NCBI GenBank assembly: GCA_001938485.1
Contig: MQRK01210159.1
Location: 17,752 to 71,834 of the forward strand
Direction of reading: 5' to 3'
Length of the DNA: 54,083 nucleotides
From: Girardia tigrina
Taxonomy: Eukaryota
The notes beneath the pieces are model-generated. The model ran no database searches. It was not told the DNA's origin and saw nothing but the letters and a program-made list of their open reading frames with translations. The translations under genes were made by a program, and so were the position numbers. This document shows positions 1-54,083 of the stretch, one piece after another (the first letter of the stretch is position 1; each line of letters starts with the position of its first letter).

Positions 1-360
1 TAATCGTCAATAGTTTGTCCTTCGTAATATTTCAAATTAATCAGTTGGCTGTACGCAGATCGTCTGGTTAATCCGAATGAATTGTCCAAGATTTGCAGTA
101 CTTCTTCATAATTGCTCTGATTCTTTTCATCCAATTCCATGTATATATTTAAAGGAACATCAGTCAACAAAAAAGGAAGATATGGGGCCGGATCCAAAAT
201 CCTCTGGATTTTCATAATCATCTTGAACTTTTTCTTCCAAATTTCAAAACTGCCGTTTCCATTAAATTTCTCCAAATGATCGAGTATAATTTTCAAATCG
301 CTTATCATTGCCCGGATAGCTTGTAACAACGAATCACAAATCTATTAAAATTTATTTTTC
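1..360 (-). mobile_element. Gypsy-type LTR retrotransposon 5' part: LTR 3' end, PBS position and gag N-terminus (runs off window start)
   Basis: Minus-strand open frame from ATG 308 to position 1: MISDLKIILDHLEKFNGNGSFEIWKKKFKMIMK...YLPFLLTDVPLNIYMELDEKNQSNYEEVLQILDNSFG (capsid-like). Upstream AATAAA...TGTTACA resembles an LTR end at 322. Confidence 0.75.
310..321 (-). promoter_or_regulatory. Putative primer-binding site AGCTATCCGGGC
   Basis: Abuts the putative LTR end ...TTACA and precedes the gag ATG. It is the exact complement of GCCCGGATAGCT, the first 12 nt of metazoan tRNA-Lys(UUU). Confidence 0.55.
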
Positions 361-2568
361 ACTAACAATACTTTCAAAATCGATATTATTCAAACAAATA
401 ATTATCTACATTTTTTCATGTTAAATATTTCATTTAAGAAATAAATTTAACATGTAATTTAATTTAACATGAAAAATTGAAACAATTTTGCAATGGAGTT
501 TGAATTAGTCATAAAAATCTTTTAATAGGATTCATTTCTAAATAAAATTCTTGTTATTTAATAATATATAATTTATGTTGATAAAAATCAACCTCACATT
601 TGAATTTATATAAATAAAATTTGGTTCTAAAGAACAGGAAAGAAATATATTCTTTAAAGTCTTGTAGTTTTTTATTTTGATTTAATCTATTGTATGTTGA
701 TTGATGGGCCCTAAAAACCAAATGATTAATTAGTTTTCATATAATTCATCTGTAAAATGGGTTAATTATCTTAAAACAATTTCTACTGACTAATGGTTAT
801 ATCAGAGATTTAATTTATGGTACAAATTCTTGTTTTTTTATCTGACTGTTTGATATATTTTCCATAATTGAAAAGATTAAAAGAAAATTAAAATTTGTGT
901 ACATTACCGTATATTAACGTATAATAGAATCTTTTCTGATTGTCCAACTTTTGACTTAGAGATATTTCTGCAATTAAGACAGTTTCTTTGAACAGAGTAC
1001 TGGTGGGACTGTACTCTCCCAATGCTTTGTACTTTTATTTATAGAATTTTTTGATCTGTTTCAAAATTTTTGCAACCATTATTATAATTTTCGCAATTAA
1101 CTTTGTAATGTGTGTAATTTACTAAAGTAATATTTGTTATTTAGTGAATTTATATATTTGTTTTAATATTCAAATGTGACAGAGCTTTTGATTGTTGATA
1201 TATTAAATTATTTAATTCACAAATTATTTTTGTCGGGGTGATCTTTATATTTTTGATATTTTTAAATTTTCGATATTTTTAAAAATCATATTTATATTTT
1301 AAATAAATCAAAAATAATATTCGATTAATTAAAAAGAAATAATTCTCTAAAATAAAAATATTTTAAATTCTTAAAAAAAAGAACAGACTCATTCTTTTAA
1401 AATTTGAAAATAATTAATTGTTATAAATAATCACTAAAATAAATATTTAAAACCAAAAGTTTTTAAACAGTTATAAGTAAAAAAATATCTTAATTAATTT
1501 TAAAAAGTTAACTCCATAAATAATTGATAAAATATAGATATATAAATATATTAAAAATTTTATAATTAAAATCNNNNNNNNNNNNNNNNNNNNNNNNNNN
1601 NNNNNNNNNNNNNNNNNNNNNNNTTAAATAATAATAAATTTAAATATTGATTAATATTTGTGTATTTTAAAAATTCGTGATTTGTATTTCAAAAATAAAA
1701 ATAATATTTTCTGTATTTCAAATTTGTGAATTGTATCTTAAAATTGTAAATTGTTTTTGCAAATTTTTCTTAAAAACAAATAAAATGTTTTATTAAAGAG
1801 AAATAATTTATAGTTTAAATTATTAATAATCACTATGTTTAAATTGATTTTTTAAAATATTTTTAAAGATCTAAATTTATGCAAAATTGAATGAAATAAC
1901 ATATTTATATATTTATCGATATTATTATATTTAGAATTTTTTAGATTTGGATTATGTAATTGAAATAGTTCCTCATAAATTTGTTTCAATAATGAAAATT
2001 GTAGTATAAATAAAGTTTGCAAAATTATGAATTCTGATTTCAATCACGAACCTAATAATTTTAAATGGATAAATGAAAGTACTAGAATCACAATTCAGTT
2101 AGACGTGCTCCTTTCAAACTGGTTGAACGATTTCTCGTTCAACTCGTTCCCGTATCGCTCTGATGCTCCTGGGTAAACACTGCACCCTCATATCGTCATT
2201 GATGCTTTGTTTCTCGTCGTTTATGAGAGAATTTTGTATTTAATTGTCACTGAGAATTTTATCTTTAGTATATTATTAGTACTGTAGAAATGGGAATTGT
2301 AAATACCGAGTTTTTGATTATCATTAGTTTTTATTTTGTCAGTGTTTTTATGATCAGTTTAACAATTACTAAGTGAATCTGTCTAATCGCCTTTCATACT
2401 TTTGAGGAGTAAATAAATCATGTATTAATTTGATAAGGGATTTACAAAAACCGAGAAAAATGTAATTTGAATTTTTTAATACATAAGTTTCTCAGCAACT
2501 ATCTATTTATTAAAAACAATTGAAATTTTCAGATATACCAAAGGAATTTTTTTACAAAAATATCACAC

Positions 2569-17965: not shown

Positions 17966-18049
17966 ATCTACGTTCGTCGTAGATGTCGTGCTTTTTGGTG
18001 ACTACATTTTATGTCCTTGTTGGTACACGAGCTGGTGCAGCGTGGTCGC

Positions 18050-19419
18050 TGGAACCCAGGGTTGGGTATTTGGTGTTTCTGGGACAAGGGGAAGGAAAGA
18101 CTGATCTTACCGACGTTGTATGATATTTGTTTGCCTTTTGAACTACCAACCAAAGCAAAGTATCGCATAGTGTATTTTGCAGAAACTGCTTCACCGGCAC
18201 CTAATTCATAAGATACAATTTCTGACTGATTTTCCTCGAAAGTTGAGACCCTTCGAAAAGCATTTTCATTACCTACAGTTATGTTGGATTTAATACTGTC
18301 TTTTTCTTTAGCCTGACAACCGTCCTGGATAATAACATTGTTATAGTGTCCGTTGGTGTTTAACATGGCCATAAGGCGTTCTCCGGCTAGTGAAAGTCGG
18401 TGCATCACCAACTGATCGACGTCAATTGTGAATCCCGTGCAATTTCTTCTCTCCTTAGATTCTGGAATGATTTTTAGATTACGTTGTCATAACGACCACT
18501 AATCATCAAATTGAATCCTGCCGATTGTAATTACGCAGCAAAAACTACACCAATATAGAAACTACACGATCCAAGTACGATAAAATCGAATTCTACATTT
18601 TTCCAATCGCATTTCGGAAGGAATGATTGGATACATAACCAGTAACTAAAACAGCCTTGGATTGCTTTATCCGACCCAATTCTCCACTAATATTACCACT
18701 TTCATTCGACAATCGTTCCAAGACTGTAGTTATCGAACCGCTACAAAATGATAATTTCAATTGGAATTTTTCAATATTTAATTTAGAGGTATTTTTATCG
18801 CCAATTGATTTTCGAAACTCAAACTGTTTATACCAATTTTGACAGTGTTTTCGGCGATTTTTCCGATTAATTTAATGACTTGACTATCTACTTGACCAGT
18901 CACAGTACTCCAAATAAGTTCGGTCATTTTCTTGTGACCAATTAACAATCGAACGGGCTCTCCTATCTCCACTTCGCGTAAGATATCGCAACACATCCGC
19001 AAGCACTGAACTTTAGCAATCATTGGATCGGTCGAGTCACAGATGTCGAAATCGCTGACAAAGAACTCTCTCAAACGATATTTCTCGAGATCGATCTGCT
19101 CGTTCCGATAAACGCGACCGGTCTGAGAGATCTTCATGTGCTTCTCGATTTTGTATCATCGACAAATATCGCGTCAAAGGATGCTTTCAGAAGTACAGCA
19201 GCGCGAGAATCTTTCCGTCCTGATCGTTTAGGTCTAACATATGCATGCACTTGTCTGTCTTGCTCTGGAAGATCTCTTTTAACTCGAAAACGGGCGTCTA
19301 GAGCCTCTCTGCTCGTGTCTCATATAGATACCATCGATTATCGCCACTATTTTCTGTCGCTCGCTCATGAATAACGGCGTTTTATCGGTGAATGCCTTTG
19401 CGTACCCGATATTCAACAT
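18050..19419 (-). pseudogene. Divergent intronless histidyl-tRNA synthetase-like pseudogene
   Basis: ATG 19419; TPVFELKE...DLNDQDGKILAL; motif 2 GRVYRNEQ...RLREFFVSDFDICDSTDPMIAKVQCL; SGRYDNVI; motif 3-like [11 protein letters not shown]; multiple stops and frameshifts. Confidence 0.85.
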
Positions 19420-27699: not shown

Positions 27700-28700
27700 A
27701 GCAGAAGTTATATACAGAATTCCTTTAACTTGCATTTGAAACATTCATTATATTGTATCGAATGACCCACAGAAGCCAAATTTTTAAGGTATTGAACTTT
27801 TAGTTATTGAACTTCCTGTTTATGAAATCGATCGATTGTTTGACATCAAACTGTATCTCATGAACACTGTTATAAGTTTTATTTCTTAGAACATGCTTTA
27901 ACGAGGAGAACAGATAAAAATCAGACGGTGAAATGTCTGGTAAGTATGGAGGCAGAGTGATTCGTGTCAATCTTCTATAATATTTTAGAGAGACTACCGG
28001 GCTACACCTGGTTTAGCATTGTATTGTATAGAGTAAAGAGTTAGATTGTTGCCAGTTAATCTTCGTCTCTCCAGTTGAATATCCAAATGTAGCTGGGTTA
28101 ATTGTTCACAATAGACATCTGCATTTAAGTTTTATTGGATGGTAAAGTCTGTATAGGAATAACTCCTTTGTAATACCAAAACAACGCTAAAAAGGGTTTT
28201 TCTTGTTTTCAACTATGGAGATACGCAAGTAGAGGTAGAATCGCCTTCCCAAACCAGCTTCTGTTAGAATAAGATATGATAGTATTTCAATACATCCAGC
28301 TTTCAATGACCGTTATAAGTCGAAAGAGAAAATTGTTTTCTTGAATTTGTTTTATAGATCACCATTTATCCGTGTTCTAAAGCCTTTGTTGTCATTAATA
28401 AAGTTGTGAGGAAGCCACCTGTTCACTCTGTAACTCATATCCATCGACTTGAGGTGATTCAATTCCGTCTCTTGACAGACACTAATTGTTTCTACTATTG
28501 TTTACTTGTTATATATTGATCTTTTTAATGAATTCTGGATTTTATCATCCAAGTTTATGGATAAACGACCTTCGTGAGGTTTATCTTGAACAGAATTATT
28601 TCCATTCTCAAATCGTTATATTCAAATGTACGTTCGCTTATTAACAATTTCAGCGTCAAGGAGTGTGTTTATTGGGCGAACGTTATAAATTATAACCCAA
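27700..28700 (-). mobile_element. Highly degenerate mariner transposase
   Basis: RWLPHNF (WVPHEL equivalent) and a PPYLPDISPSDF-like YSPDL relic near 27915-27955. Confidence 0.7.
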
Positions 28701-28720
28701 TCAATTATCTAAAACTCTAT

Positions 28721-28765
28721 CTTCAGATTATGAGACTGACGCGCTACCTACTGCGCTATCGAGGC
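28721..28765 (-). pseudogene. 5' 45-nt fragment of elongator tRNA-Met(CAT)
   Basis: GCCTCGATAGCGCAGTAGGTAGCGCGTCAGTCTCATAATCTGAAG; D-arm and anticodon arm intact, T-arm and 3' acceptor strand missing. Confidence 0.85.
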
Positions 28766-32469: not shown

Positions 32470-33675
32470 TTAGGCTGATGTAAAAGAAATGTCGTTTTTA
32501 ATGTATTTAATATTCATTGTTTGAAATATTTAGAAAATCATTAATAAATAGATTCATATTTAAACTTACTTTAAAGCTTAAACTTTGCTCTATATTTTGA
32601 TACCAAGTATGACATTATTGTTGTTAATTTAAGGTGTATTTATTTTATTTTAGAAATGTTAGAAAAGAAGGAAATGAGAACAATTTTATTCTACGATTTC
32701 AAACTAGGTCGAAAAGCGACAGAAACGGCTTGGAATATTAACAATGTATTTGGACAACATACCACTAATTTTCGAACAGTACAACGTTGGTTTTCTACGT
32801 GTCGTAGTGGCAACGAGAGCCTTGAAGATGAAGAACACGGTAGTCGACCATCACAAGTTGAGGACGACCATTCAAAGAAGTTAATCAATGCTGATTCGCA
32901 TAAAAATTCACGGGAAGTCGCTCAAGAACTCAACTTTCACCAATCAACAGTTGTTCGCCATCTGAAGAAAATCGGGAATGTGAAAAACCTGGACAAGGGG
33001 GTACCGCACGAATTAAACAAAATCAAAAAAAATCGTCGTTTTAACGTGTGTTCTCTGTTTTTGCGTAATCAAAGTGACGAGTTTCTGTATGGAATTGTAA
33101 CGTGCGATGCAAAATGGATCCTATACGACAACCGGCAACGTTCAGCTCAGTAGTTGGATTTCAATGAGGCTACAAAACCTTTCCTGAAGCTAAAATTACA
33201 CCGAAAATGTCATGGTAACTGTTTGGTGGTGTGCACACGGTTTAATCCATTACAGCTTCCTAAAACAAGGCAAAAAAATTACAGCGGAAAAGTATTGTCA
33301 ACAAATTGGCAAAATGCACAAAGAACTACAAAAAACGGCCGGCATTACTCAATAGAAAGGGGCCAATTCTTCTGCATGACAACACTTGTCCATATGATGC
33401 AAGAAAGACCATGCTGAAATTAAACGATCTGGAATATGAAACTTTGACTCATCCGCCGTACTCACCAGACCTTTCTCCTACAGACTATCACCTTTTCAAA
33501 CATTTCAACCAGTTCCTTCGCGAAAAATACTTCAGAAACCAAGGACTGCTGAAAAAGCCTTGAACGACTTCATCGCTTCCAGAACTCCAGAATTTTATGA
33601 AACTAGAATAAAAAACTTGTTCCCCGTTGGAAACAGTGTGTTCAATGTAATGGTTTTTATTTTGACTAATATAGT
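32470..33675 (+). mobile_element. mariner (cecropia/Hsmar1-like DD34D), inactive
   Basis: TA|TTAGGCTG left TIR; ORF from 32656 with GSRPS, VPHEL, TCDAKW, HDN and YSPDLSPTDY; stops and frameshifts. Confidence 0.93.
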
Positions 33676-35096: not shown

Positions 35097-35889
35097 GAAT
35101 TTAATACTTATTCGAAAATCATACTTATAAGTCAATATTTTGTAACTGAGTATACAATAAATATGCTATGATAACCATAATTCTAGACATAACCTAAAAG
35201 GTTTGCATTACAGTTTTCATATTTAACTGTATTTTGTAATAATTCCTTCATCCTTTCTTTGCTGTCTCACCACTGTTAAATTGCAATACTCCTGTATCCG
35301 AAACGTCAGTAAGGCAAATAACTTTCGTTTAGGTCGTGCTAAAATGTGTTCCTCAGTATTTCTAGATTTCAATAGATACAATTGCGGTACTCCAATAGTT
35401 GAAACAGAAATAAAAAAACTAAAAATATTATGTGATAATAATTAATGAAAATTGCGAATATAAAGACGCTTGTTTAAACGCATAAAGTGTAAATTTAAAA
35501 ATAAAATTATTATAAATGTAAATTGAATATCTTCGCTGCAGTGCTTTCAATCCTTATACTGTATGCTACAAATTTTCTATAGAAAATCATTACTGAAATC
35601 GAATATACCTCTAAGAACATAATAAACAATCTATAATATGATTGACACGATGTAAACAGAATTATTTACAAATTAAATGGAACTTGAAGTCACAAGAAAA
35701 GAACTAGTAATAATTCAATGTTATCAAGTCAAGCTAATGTAAGATAAAGTACTTTTGTGTCCGGAGCATGGAAGGGATCACTAAAGTTCGTGCTAGCAAC
35801 TTCAAAGATCACAAACTACGATTTTGCAGCAAATGAAAGACGATTTCTACATATTCTCTATCACATTACTGTTCATTTTAAAATAAATA

Positions 35890-37476
35890 CAGGGTGACGC
35901 AAAATAAACTCCAAGGTACTTTTCTATTGGATCTTTTTGTCCACCTATTTTTTTATTGGTAAAGTATACATTTTTAGAATCCTGAGCGTCGCCAAATTCT
36001 GATGGTATATAAAAAAATCAAAAAAAACATCAAAAATTAACAAAAATTTTTGAGAGGAAAAATTTAACAAGCGTTTTTTTAAATGAACTTAGAAAGTTTT
36101 ACCCTAAAATTTGATTCAAATGACGTACACGGATCAGCAAAAAGCTCATCTCGTTTTGATGCTTGTTGAGGAAGCCTATGATTATACGCAGCTCAAAACT
36201 CGATTCCGAAGTGAAACAAGAAATGGTCGAGCAAAGATTCCGGAAAAAAAGAGTCATTGTAAAATGGATTGACGATTTTCGAGCGACTGGAAGTGTACAT
36301 GGAAAGCGCGGAAAGAACAAGCCAAACGTGTTCGCACCAAAAAGCCATTGAAGACATCCGTGAAGCCTTTACTGCAAATCCTCATCTATCAACTCGACGC
36401 AATCCATTTGTTTCAACTGGCGACACTGACAGCGAAGACGATCACGGAACAGTTCGTATGTCACAAAGAAGCCTGCAGCGAATTTTGAAAGAAGACTTAC
36501 AGATGCGTCCCTATCATTTGTAAATGGCTCATACCTTGGAGGAGACCGACTATGCCGCTCGAATTGAGTTTGCTCGAACCGAATTGGATCGATTGGATGA
36601 AGATGCAAACAGACTCAACAATCTTCTTTTTACGGATGAAGCCCACTTTCATTTGGACGGAAGCGTCAATCGTCAAGACAAGATCATGTGAGCCGATGAA
36701 AATCCTCATTGGTTTGATGTTCGTCGACTTCATCCTCAAAAATTGACAGTTTGGATTGGAATTAGTGTCGAAGGTGTTGTTGGCCCATACCTTTGGGAGC
36801 GACAAGGAAATGAGCACGGAACCAATGGTCGTTGGATGACTGAATTGTATCAAGAGCACGTTATTCCAGAGCTTCAAACTTGGTCGAATTTCAATTCTCT
36901 CATTGAGCAGCATGACGGCGCTCCGCCACACATTCTTGGAGATTTTCTTGAATTGTTGGATCAACATTTTCCAAATCGATGGATAGGTCGCAGAACACGG
37001 GCGCATCCTGCTCCAGTTACATGGCCAACTCGCTCGCCAGATCTTACAGCATGTGACTATTGGTTGTGGGGCTACATAAAAGGTCGAATTTATCATTGCG
37101 AACAACGTCCAAGCACACTCGAAGAGTTGAGAGCAGCGATTGAAGGAGTTGCAAATGAAATCCGTGGAGACCGCGCACTTCGTGAACGCGTTGTCGCCGA
37201 CTACATACCACGTTTGCATGAATGTTTTCTTAGAGATGGAGGACAAGTTGAAATTCGAAAATTAATTGTTGTTATGCTTTTATGGAATAAAAAGCTTGTT
37301 AAATTTTTCGTCTCAAAATTTTTTTTTAATTTTTCATGTTTTTTTCGATTTTTTTATATACCATCAGAATTTGGCGACGCTCAGGATTCTAAAAATGTAT
37401 ACTTTACCTATAAAAAAGTAGGTGGATAAAAAGATCCAATAGAAAAGTGCCTTGGAGTTTATTTTGCGTCACCCTG
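35890..37476 (+). mobile_element. Full-length rosa/Visitor-type (DD41D family) transposon with about 185-bp TIRs; transposase disrupted
   Basis: TA|CAGGGTGACGCAAAATAAACTCCAAGG...CCTTGGAGTTTATTTTGCGTCACCCTG|TA; ATG 36120; FTDEAHFHL, QHDGAPPH, RWIGR, WPTRSPDLTACDYWLWG. Confidence 0.95.
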
Positions 37477-37640
37477 TATTTATTTATCAAGCAAATTTGA
37501 TTTTTATATGAATCATTTATATAATCCTTGATAATATAAAGTTTATTATTATATAAAATTTATATAACAAAATAAACACAACTAAATCTGTTAAACTTTC
37601 TAAATTTATTAAAGAAATTTTAAGTTTGATACATTTGTAG

Positions 37641-45139: not shown

Positions 45140-47020
45140 ATCATCAGTCGTGAAGTAAATTTCAAATTACAAGTCATTTATATGGCACATTGACTATTAC
45201 ACAATTAATCTTTTTCCTTTTTTTTATTAATTAATATTAAAAGATTTTAATATGATTGGATAATTATTCACTTTGAACATTTAAGCATGGTTTTAAATGC
45301 TTTATTAATAATGCCTCAGTGACTATCCTCTCATGATATGATATGTGTCAAATTTTTTTTTCAAAACTGTAAATTCAGTTTCATAGTTAAAAACACTTAA
45401 AAAAGAAATTTTTCAGCCAAGGGGCCCAACCAGCAAAATTATATGGGTTACCCAAAATTCATAAAGATGGAATCCCAATGCGTCCAGTTCTTTCAATGAT
45501 AAATACAGCACAATATAATGTTGTTAAAACTTTGGAAAGATTATTGAAGTCATTAATTAATAACCCCATAGAATTTAAAGACAGTTTTGAGTTAGTGAAC
45601 AATATCTTAAACCATAAAATCAAAACTAATGAGGAGGTCATGGTTTCATTTGACATAGTTAGCTTATTCACTAACGTACCTTTAAATGAAACGATTGATT
45701 TATGTACTACATTATGGGATGAATTAGTTGAAAATAAAGTGGCTTCAATGAGTAGTAAAGCAATGAAGGCACTTTTAGAATTTAGTACAAAAAATGTTCA
45801 ATTTATTTTTAATAATGAATGGTACATGCAAGTTGATGGAGTGACAATGGGGTCTCCACTAGCACCTTTAATGGCTTCAATATTTCTCCAAAGTTTGGAG
45901 AAAAAAGTTCAATTTTTTTGAAGGAAACATGCCTTTATTTTACACTAGATATGTTGATGATATCTTCTTGATTTTTGAAAATAAAAACCATATAGATAAT
46001 TTTTTACAATTTATGAATCAACTTCATCCAAATATGAGATTTTCCAGTGAAATCAAATCAGCGGGTAAGATTTCATTTTGAAAATTTCATTTTCAAATTG
46101 AAAGAAAATCGAAGGGCTATGAAACTGAAGTATTTCGAAAGAGTACTGACACGGGTTTATACAATAATCCTATGAGTTTCTGTGATCCCAAGTACAATAA
46201 AAATATGGTGAAAGGATTAATTCACAGAATATGGAATTTATCTTCTACGTATTGTGGTGTGGATAAGGGTATTGTTAATCTTAAAAGCAGGTTAAAAAAT
46301 AATGGGTACAATAAAAATTATTTAAATAATTTGATAAAAAATACAATTGACTCAATTCGTGAAAAATCTAATAATAAAAATGAAAACATTATAAATAATG
46401 ATAGTAGTAATGTAATAAAAACAATAAATTTAAAATTACCATTTTCAGAAGGCGCGTCTGATTTGAGGAAAGGTCTAATTAAAAAGGTTCCTTCGGGTTT
46501 TAATTTGCGGGTGTTCTTCATAACTAATAAACTATCAAGATATTTCTCAAATAAATCAAAAACTCCATCAGGTGTCCAAGCTAATCTAGTATATCAATTT
46601 AAATATCACAAGTGTGAATCCTTGTACATTGGAGAAACAAATCGTCATCTCCGCACTAGAATAGATGGACACACCCAATTGAGTAGGAATAGCTCGATTC
46701 TAGATTACATTAAAAAATGCCGAAATAGAGATAAAGTTAACTATGAAACTGAATTTACAGTTTTGAAGAAAAATTTTGACACATATCATGAGAGGATAGT
46801 CACTGAGGCATTATTAATAAAGCATTTAAAACCATGCTTAAATGTTCAAAGTGAATTATCCAATCATATTAAAATCTTTTAATATTAATTAATAAAAAAA
46901 AGAAAAAGATTAATTGCGTAATAGTCAATGTGCCATATAAATGACTTGTAATTTGAAATTTACTTCACAACTGATGATGTCGTAATGGCGAAACATGTTT
47001 TGAGAAATAAAAAAACATTT
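45140..47020 (+). mobile_element. Penelope-like retroelement (RT + GIY-YIG), 5'-truncated, with inverted pLTR
   Basis: LYGLPKIHKDGIPMRP, SFDIVSLFTNVP, GVTMGSPLAP, RYVDDIF, VYQFK..CESLYIGET; 45140-45390 is an inverted copy of 46737-46978. Confidence 0.95.
46964..47006 (+). ncRNA. Minimal type I hammerhead ribozyme in Penelope pLTR
   Basis: TTCACAA CTGATGA T GTC-GTAAT-GGC GAAA CATGTT TTGAGAA; palindromic stem III AAACATGTTT. Confidence 0.8.
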
Positions 47021-52574: not shown

Positions 52575-53965
52575 CCCTACAAATACTGTGCATGGACAAA
52601 AATGTCCACACTTATGAAAATTTTAAAACTGTGAATGAAAATCTTTGAAAATGCTTTAAGCAGTGTAATTTTATTGCGGTCCCGGACTTGAAAGTGCATT
52701 TAGCTGATCCGATTCTTGTCCATATTTATCTTGCAAGGGGTTTTGATTAGTTTTTTAATTGATTTATTGTGTTTTATTTTATTGATATGGATTTATAAAT
52801 TATTTTTATTTTACTGATTTATTTTATTTATTTTAGAATGGATATTGCGAGAGAAAATGATTTAATTTTATCAGGAGAAGAAGATGAGACAAGTGAAGTT
52901 GAAGACAATGAGGAAGAGTATCAATTGACCGATGAAGATGAAGTAGGAGAAGAAGAAGAATTAGAAGAGGCAAACGAACAAATAGTGTCAAAAACTGGTA
53001 AGGTTTACTTCAAAAAGCAGTTTAGAAATCAAAAAATATATATTCAAGATGTAATAAAAGATCATATGGGCATAACACCTGACGGTAAGATTATAAATGC
53101 AGAAGATTCTTTCCGTAAAATCATGTCAACGGATGTCCTTGATATAATCATCAAAAATACGAATGAACATATAATAGAAGAAAATGATAAGATTGATGAA
53201 ATCGATCTGCTCGCCTTTATGGGACTATTATACATGATGAGAAGCAATAATGATAATACTCAATCGATTACAGATTTATGGTCACAACTAAATGGTAGAC
53301 CATTTTACAGAGGCGCGATGTCAAGAAATAGGTTTATTCAAATAATAAAGCATTTGCGATTCGATGAAAAGAGTACCAGACAAGAAAGAAGAAAGACTGA
53401 TAAATTTGCTCCCATAAGAAATCTATTTGAATCAATTGCATCTTCTTTTTCAAAATTTTCAAGCCTTACGAATGTACGACTATAGATGAGATGCTCTCAC
53501 TATTTCGTGGAAGGTGCCCAATCAAGGTTTTTATGAAGGATAAGCCCGTTAAATACGGTATACTTATTCGAATGATAACAGTCGCTAAGCATCGTTATCT
53601 ATTAGCAATGGAGCCATATGCTGGCAAATCCGATTTACAATTCAATAAACCTATAGACATAGTTATTAGACTGGCTAAGGTGATCAAAGGATCTTCACGT
53701 AATATAACGATGGACCGTTATTATTCATCTATTGATTTAGTAGATATTCTATGGCACAATTTTAAACTAACAATGGTCGGAACTATTCAATCTAACAGAA
53801 AGCATCTTCCTAATATTATAAAAAATACTAGCGTAACAGAGCTGTACTCATCTTTATTCTTGTTTTCAAAAGCGAGCTCTACTTCAGCACCAGTAACACT
53901 CCTTTCATACAATGCAAAGCCTCGAAAATCAGTATTATTAATATCAACTCATCCTCAGTCTATTG
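52575..53965 (+). mobile_element. piggyBac transposon, frameshifted and interrupted
   Basis: TTAA|CCCT terminus; acidic N-terminus, MSRNRF..I..HLRFD, TIDEML..FRGRCP..KPVKYG, ITMDRYYSS. Confidence 0.93.
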
Positions 53966-54083
53966 CAGGCCTGGCCAACCCAAGGCCCGCGGGCCACGTT
54001 TGGCCCGCAAGACAATTTTTGTGGCCCGCCGGACCATTTCATATTAAAATTATTTTTTAATATTACATAAATGTTAAATAATT
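53966..54083. mobile_element. hAT Charlie-type element end inserted in the piggyBac ORF
   Basis: CAGGCCTGGCCAACC terminus with GGCCCGC subterminal repeats, preceded by the 8-mer GTCTATTG. Confidence 0.8.

Follow-up and report, generated by a model that had tools for sequence, protein, structure and literature searches.

A predicted primer-binding site complementary to tRNA nucleotides 1-12, directly behind the LTR of a retrotransposon lineage of a planarian and other invertebrates

The window, by which we mean the whole 54,083-nucleotide stretch of Girardia tigrina DNA that was analysed, carries at its left edge and on the minus strand what is best explained as the front end (LTR, primer site and start of gag) of a compact LTR retrotransposon. 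Read in the direction of the element, an AT-rich 5′ LTR of about 138 bp (322..459, bounded by contigs from read data) contains a candidate polyadenylation signal, AATAAA (351..356), and closes with the terminus TGTTACA (328-322). The predicted primer-binding site AGCTATCCGGGC follows immediately (310..321, LTR +1 to +12) and is an exact complement of nucleotides 1-12 of tRNA-Lys(UUU). One base, an A at 309, separates the site from the ATG of gag (308-306), and the first 102 codons of gag (1..308) form an open frame that runs off the edge of the window. This minus-strand order of AATAAA...TGTTACA, 12-mer, A and ATG had been described in an earlier note on this DNA and is confirmed from the sequence. 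The site occurs only once in the window at up to one mismatch, counting both strands, where shuffled sequence predicts 0.01 occurrences. At three mismatches there are 10 matches in the window against 5.8 expected, with none between 322 and 2147.

The profile search with the window gag returned 646 relatives at E <=0.001. The gag relatives are 222-293 amino acids long with a CCHC knuckle and a weak match to Retrotrans_gag; full-length relatives with the knuckle are 96% identical to the window gag, which has diverged from most copies at several positions in the contig comparison. The features of an LTR retrotransposon are spread over several copies. A polypurine tract bounds the window LTR in other copies, two LTRs are present in four relatives, and the succession of a gag with CCHC and then pol is completed in relatives, the window itself holding the start of gag only.

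The extent of the LTR was determined by aligning the contigs of 4 sequencing runs (of 24 listed) to window positions 1-1560. One of the four, X16, is an RNA library, and its contigs carry no information on transcription or start site. The high-copy part ends at 457 in the contigs of all four runs, and in three of them (X1, with 46 contigs, X10 and X16) the loose contig ends at 457 continue into a polypurine tract. Inside the repeat the depth in X1 is about 1e6, and past 468 it is down to about 145. A repeat that ends at 457 with a polypurine tract beyond it is as expected where the 3′ LTR begins, giving an LTR of about 138 bp (459-322). The outer two LTR bases of the window copy (459-458) mismatch the other copies and its outer edge is damaged. 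We note an 11-bp direct repeat (444-471) that brackets this edge, where the window copy stops matching the others. Among the variants listed none reaches 5% or more between 295 and 334, a segment that spans the 12-mer, and there are many on both sides of it. One contig of X1 joins the LTR end to the LTR start (321/455) with 25 letters between, and may be either a tandem LTR or an LTR-LTR junction.

Relatives with two LTRs (L007, L012, L018 and L022) have the site at +1 after the 5′ LTR in all four cases, and it is absent after the 3′ LTR. A target-site duplication is exact (5 bp) in L018, a near-match in L012 and missing in L022. The LTR boundary, which the earlier note had assumed, is thus supported by the contig ends, the polypurine tract and the two-LTR relatives. 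Conservation of the 12-mer among copies, a test that the note proposed, is borne out both by the lack of listed variants at or above 5% across the site and by its retention across distant families.

As printed in the accessible parts of the sources, the reverse complement of AGCTATCCGGGC is the start of human tRNA-Lys3 (PMC8715211), of zebrafish 5′tRF-Lys-TTT (PMC4688932) and of the Lys-TTT genes of the planarian Schmidtea (all five rows listed; PMC7962491 supplement). The proposed identity of the 12-mer as the complement of nucleotides 1-12 of metazoan tRNA-Lys(UUU) is therefore exact against the printed human, zebrafish and planarian sequences. The complementarity covers nucleotides 1-12 and breaks at C13. 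We rejected the idea that the site is a sense remnant of the tRNA 3′ end. At the wobble position, where a T is printed for the Lys 3′ strand, the site carries C, and so it is a complement of the tRNA 5′ strand and not a copy of the 3′ strand. A conventional site is likewise missing: as had been noted for the window, no TGG-starting primer-binding site follows the LTR, and TGG is absent from the first 8 nt after the LTR in the window and in all 20 lineage representatives.

Gag patterns of one sub-group, A5, which matches the window gag profile at E 4e-31, were used to scan metagenomic DNA, the primer site itself not being part of the query. The scan gave 51 loci, 48 with upstream DNA and three without. 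The motif AGCTAT-NNN-GGC is exact in 40 of the 48, and is found at one mismatch in three, at two in two and at three in three; random 210-nt windows from the same loci contained it exactly in 6 of 1449. At 70% gag identity the 43 best loci group into 20 clusters, compared with 31 at 90% and 18 at 60%. One exact-match representative of each 70% cluster together with the window makes up the 21 rows of our information profile; this choice of representatives inflates the information peak but not its sharp edge. Information content is 2 bits at +1 to +6 and at +10 to +12, 0.45 bits at +13, and high at the ACA of the LTR. Conservation of the site ends at the base opposite G1 of the tRNA.

Closer to the window, peptides obtained by reading through upstream of gag (SYPG, KLSGH and QAIRA) expose the site in four other families of its branch, with gags 37-69% identical; for these families, numbered 2-5, the site is seen through peptide read-through only. 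By eye, S-Y-x-G or Q-A-I/N-x-x is present in 25 of the 150 relatives listed, and most of the remaining listed relatives begin at Met and so cannot reveal a site peptide. Gag scans of viral contigs, and a metagenome scan for the window's own families, returned no matches. A gag tree was built from 27 loci, six proteins of the window's branch and two others, with near-duplicates and L036 left out. In it the five families of the window's branch share a single long branch (100/100). The root and the deep forks of this tree are unsure and the L049 row is unreliable; on it the triplet TTC, discussed below, needs five changes and CGC four. We regard the site as a real, clade-wide and non-canonical primer site.

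The variable triplet of the site faces tRNA positions 6-4. In the 21 rows it reads TTC eight times, CGC seven, CAC three, and CTA, CAT and CCG once each; TCC occurs once, inside the CTA cluster. The CCG of the window complements the start of tRNA-Lys(UUU). In the accessible parts of the respective sources, TTC complements human tRNA-Phe(GAA), as read from a primer sequence (PMC10505166), and CGC complements planarian tRNA-Phe (PMC7962491 supplement). With these three triplets 16 of the 21 rows match published animal tRNA-Lys or tRNA-Phe 5′ ends, the reference being human, zebrafish and planarian tRNAs. The choice of tRNA-Lys as partner in the earlier note therefore stands for the sub-branch of the window and a few others, which fit Lys(UUU), but not for most of the wider clade, which fits tRNA-Phe(GAA). 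For CTA and CAC the matches come from prokaryotic-virus contigs only. There, 11 of 25 matches to the CTA-type start are tRNA-Phe, the 40 matches to the CAC-type start include two Phe, five Thr and one Leu, and none of 23 pattern matches to CAT is a tRNA start. With a single G-U, CAT would be able to pair with the tRNA of the CAC type. The sole match to TCC is a planarian pseudogene. Ty1 and Ty3 are described, in the accessible text of PMC7472051, as inheriting their primer site instead of recopying it from the tRNA; with a site inherited in this way, wobbles such as CAT could persist.

The pol genes were examined in five intact relatives. The order is RT, DUF7047, then H2C2 and rve integrase in all five; an RNase H-type match lies between RT/DUF7047 and the integrase in four, and a protease match is present in one. 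The pol frame is -1 relative to gag. L007, L012, L018 and L022 are very compact, at about 4.0-4.3 kb with LTRs, and the leader from the site to the first ATG is 0-21 nt in 19 of 20 lineages. DUF7047 (PF23088) sits between RT and RNase H in all five pols (for example L022:989-3949), has 858 matches among 8000 scored, and marks a large lineage. The best 120 of these 858 matches include the named pol relatives Trichuris, Trichinella, Petrolisthes, Amphibalanus and Macrobrachium, and no cestode or schistosome names. The RT is divergent: in PDB the matches of the pol profile are all weak, and retroviral integrases and RTs rank above Ty3. No BEL/Pao-specific Pfam family is found in the five intact pols. 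The label 'Gypsy' given in the earlier note agrees with the PR-RT-RNase H-IN order and H2C2 integrase of the relatives, but it does not extend to a placement of the window copy, since the window is without pol and a domain order is not a reference tree.

A Gmr1-like (PR-IN-RT) assignment, suggested by protein P0111, was dropped because RT precedes IN in the five intact pols. P0111 itself is a 767-residue gag-protease-integrase protein with no RT or RNase H, and is probably an internally deleted member. In L001 about 100 nt between the site and gag (L001:1845-1950) are tRNA-like, with a T-arm-like stretch and then a T run, and are possibly a tRNA-derived leader insertion; ARAGORN and Rfam gave no match to this segment. 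ARAGORN reported no relevant tRNA on the 51 loci. Four loci, L049-L051 on one contig and L048, are animal-type retrotransposon DNA in two bacterial MAGs, probably through host contamination. L049 is a tandem unit of 8.16 kb in which element front ends and microsatellites are accompanied by two tRNA-Ser(TGA) genes in each unit. A pattern search for tRNAs in the two MAGs listed 68 matches, among which the counts were no higher than the control in one genome, and none of the eight matches checked was a tRNA.

The position and reach of the pairing suggest that the element probably primes its minus-strand DNA from a 5′ piece of tRNA, nucleotides 1-12, with a predicted cut behind U12. On a packaged tRNA the site would pair with nucleotides 1-12 by invading the acceptor stem and, in the D stem, its first half. 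A nuclease would then free the 3′-OH at U12, from which RT would extend into the LTR. As a 3′-OH is needed at U12, the tRNA would have to be cut or trimmed there. By analogy with Tf1, the most likely nuclease would be the element's own RNase H, with the bound tRNA as its substrate; otherwise it would be a host enzyme. A weaker element of the model is pairing of LTR positions -4 to -6 with A14-G15-U16 of the tRNA, which would leave C13 in a loop at the predicted cut. A pyrimidine is kept at -5, and a purine at -6, in 19 of 21 rows each, and -4 to -6 fully fit A14-G15-U16 at 7 of 10 U5 ends versus 3 of 10 U3 ends. These positions may form a second short helix that frames the cut, or may be only the attachment site of the integrase.

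The calculated energy of the duplex between site and tRNA is -23.5 kcal/mol for the window site, within a range of -19 to -24. Freeing the site costs 4.5-6.3 kcal/mol and freeing tRNA nucleotides 1-12 costs 5-11 kcal/mol (nine stand-in tRNA-Phe genes). Invasion is net favourable by about 4-10 kcal/mol, a value for unmodified stand-in tRNAs with tertiary structure ignored. Within the fragment-primer model we slightly favour, again by analogy, a cut by the element RNase H over a host-made fragment. A more far-reaching and tentative version, to which we would give somewhat less than an even chance, is that throughout the invertebrate DUF7047 lineage (nematodes, crustaceans and many metagenome hosts) the element's own RT-RNase H captures intact tRNA-Phe or tRNA-Lys by its 5′ strand and, once the acceptor stem has been opened, cuts the tRNA behind U12.

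The primer could also come ready-made from the host, as an RNA whose 5′ end is of tRNA type, either a trimmed 5′ tRF or the RNA of a tRNA-derived SINE, with no cut made by the element. This overlaps with the tRNA-fragment model; the geometry is the same and the difference lies in who makes the end. The occurrence of Lys-TTT 5′ fragments in zebrafish (PMC4688932, accessible text) and in planarians is in its favour, as is the fact that some triplet variants match no known animal tRNA. In the portion of the planarian source available, however, the reported size classes of tRF-5 are 18, 21 and 24 nt, from a size selection of 18-24 nt that would miss a 12-mer. With reported fragments of at least 18 nt, trimming to nucleotide 12 would still be required. 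We regard a ready-made primer as possible but rather unlikely.

Conservation and covariation show pairing and not cleavage, and the contact with nucleotides 1-12 could serve as a packaging or dimerisation anchor, the priming itself being done by a 2′-OH branch at U12/C13 or by another primer. Bipartite tRNA contacts are a feature of Ty3, and retrons prime from a 2′-OH. Against this, the pairing ends exactly at the LTR edge in all four two-LTR elements, which is where a 3′-OH is needed, and no alternative primer site is seen near the LTR end. We know of no LTR element for which 2′-OH priming has been established. A role as anchor without priming seems to us improbable.

Ordinary self-priming of the Tf1 type, in which the site would pair with the folded-back first bases of the transcript and would match tRNA only by coincidence, had been raised by the earlier note as one of the outcomes that would refute tRNA priming, and the geometry is indeed like that of Tf1, with a short site and no gap to the LTR. 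For 13 LTRs the bounds are set by a second LTR or by a polypurine tract and TG, and none of them holds a Watson-Crick self-primer: the best match in each has 4-6 mismatches of 12 (six in the window). With G-U allowed, two LTRs offer partial partners, that of L018 with a run of 9 that 51 of 1000 shuffles equal and that of L028 with a run of 10 that 11 of 1000 equal, but neither run is significant after correction for 12 tests, and the other 10 of the 12 LTRs do no better than shuffles. Complements with one mismatch lie 327 nt upstream in L016 and L017, and one with two mismatches lies 528 nt upstream in L042, but in 35 of 38 loci the whole element strand holds no complement closer than three mismatches. 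A self-primer would moreover drift with its LTR, whereas here the site is fixed and the LTRs are unrelated. Self-priming is thus very unlikely. Just as little credence is due to a protein-binding, promoter or translation-start signal that complements tRNA by chance: the short leader to the first ATG and the overlap with part of a would-be A-box on the opposite strand would suit such a signal, but a perfect match to a published tRNA 5′ terminus is seen with each of three different triplets, and the motif stops at G1. On the opposite strand the A14-G15 part of the A-box is not kept, and the element would otherwise lack a primer site altogether.

Half-tRNA priming is used by Drosophila copia and yeast Ty5, and the RNase H cut of Tf1 yields an 11-nt primer. 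We liken the site described here to tRNA-fragment priming; judged by its sequence, it appears to lie outside the half-tRNA, self-priming and 3′-end classes. A plant-wide survey distinguishes whole tRNA, half tRNA and self-primer as LTR primer types, and in its accessible text half-tRNA use in plants is reported for Ty1/copia only (Osser, Bryco, Gymco-II and Bianca; PMC6317226). As in half-tRNA Ty1/copia elements, a host tRNA would supply the primer from its 5′ portion, and the site adjoins the 5′ LTR and has no TGG start. In those elements the cut is in the anticodon stem of a Met or Ile tRNA, whereas here the site faces nucleotides 1-12 up to the 5′ terminus of Lys or Phe tRNA, and the order is PR-RT-RH-IN. 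With Tf1/sushi, which the same survey describes as self-priming Ty3/gypsy elements (PMC6317226, accessible text), the present lineage would share a very short primer with a natural RNA 5′ end, the lack of a gap to the LTR, the gypsy-type order and a predicted cut at the end of an RNA-RNA duplex. It differs from them in that the LTR holds no complement of the site and the partner is predicted to be a host tRNA in trans. The Saci-2/lennie flatworm gypsy clade is similar by description, comprising invertebrate LTR elements with TGT...ACA ends and PR-RT-RH-IN order (accessible parts of PMC4558846 and PMC12471100). The site of lennie, however, pairs with the 3′ end of tRNA-Leu and lies 4 nt from the LTR (PMC4558846), and Saci2 is described with a fused gag-pol and 4-bp duplications (PMC12471100), in contrast to the separate gag and pol frames (-1) here and the 5-bp duplication of L018.

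In the open-access literature we found no report of a primer site for tRNA nucleotides 1-12, Repbase, Dfam and GyDB lying outside this search. Such a site is absent from the accessible parts of PMC3286476, PMC8220671, PMC13524379, PMC13537249 and PMC11962134. A conserved site of this kind would add a fourth primer type, in a gypsy-order lineage and in many invertebrates. It would also connect tRNA priming with Tf1 self-priming in mechanism and offer a simple substrate for studying how an RNA-RNA duplex is cut by RT or RNase H, and it leads to the prediction that the lineage could be regulated by short tRNA fragments from the 5′ side and not by 3′ fragments. If the more far-reaching version is true, it would represent Tf1 chemistry performed in trans on a tRNA; no shorter tRNA-derived primer would be known, and the primer site would be out of reach of 3′-tRF silencing. 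Annotation pipelines whose search is restricted to the last 12-18 nt of tRNAs, as the accessible text of PMC13524379 and PMC4558846 describes, would score such elements as site-less.

Several other features were seen in the window. ARAGORN reported no tRNA gene. A truncated tRNA-Met(CAT)-like remnant lies on the minus strand at 28693-28765 (Rfam, 29 bits), and its first 12 nt are those of planarian Met-type tRNA genes, a faint pointer to a flatworm-like host. At 45140-46978 an RT-containing ORF (45391-45921) and a second ORF (46082-46882) are flanked by inverted repeats of about 250 bp, an element that we take to be Penelope-like. DNA transposon sequences are represented by an HTH of mariner type, a transposase-like ORF enclosed in a pair of 207-bp inverted repeats, and remnants of piggyBac type (DDE_Tnp_1_7) (32575-33153, 35881-37485 and 52799-54060). 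A partial match to a myosin head (E 4e-8) on the minus strand at 17968-18486 is possibly an exon of a host gene.
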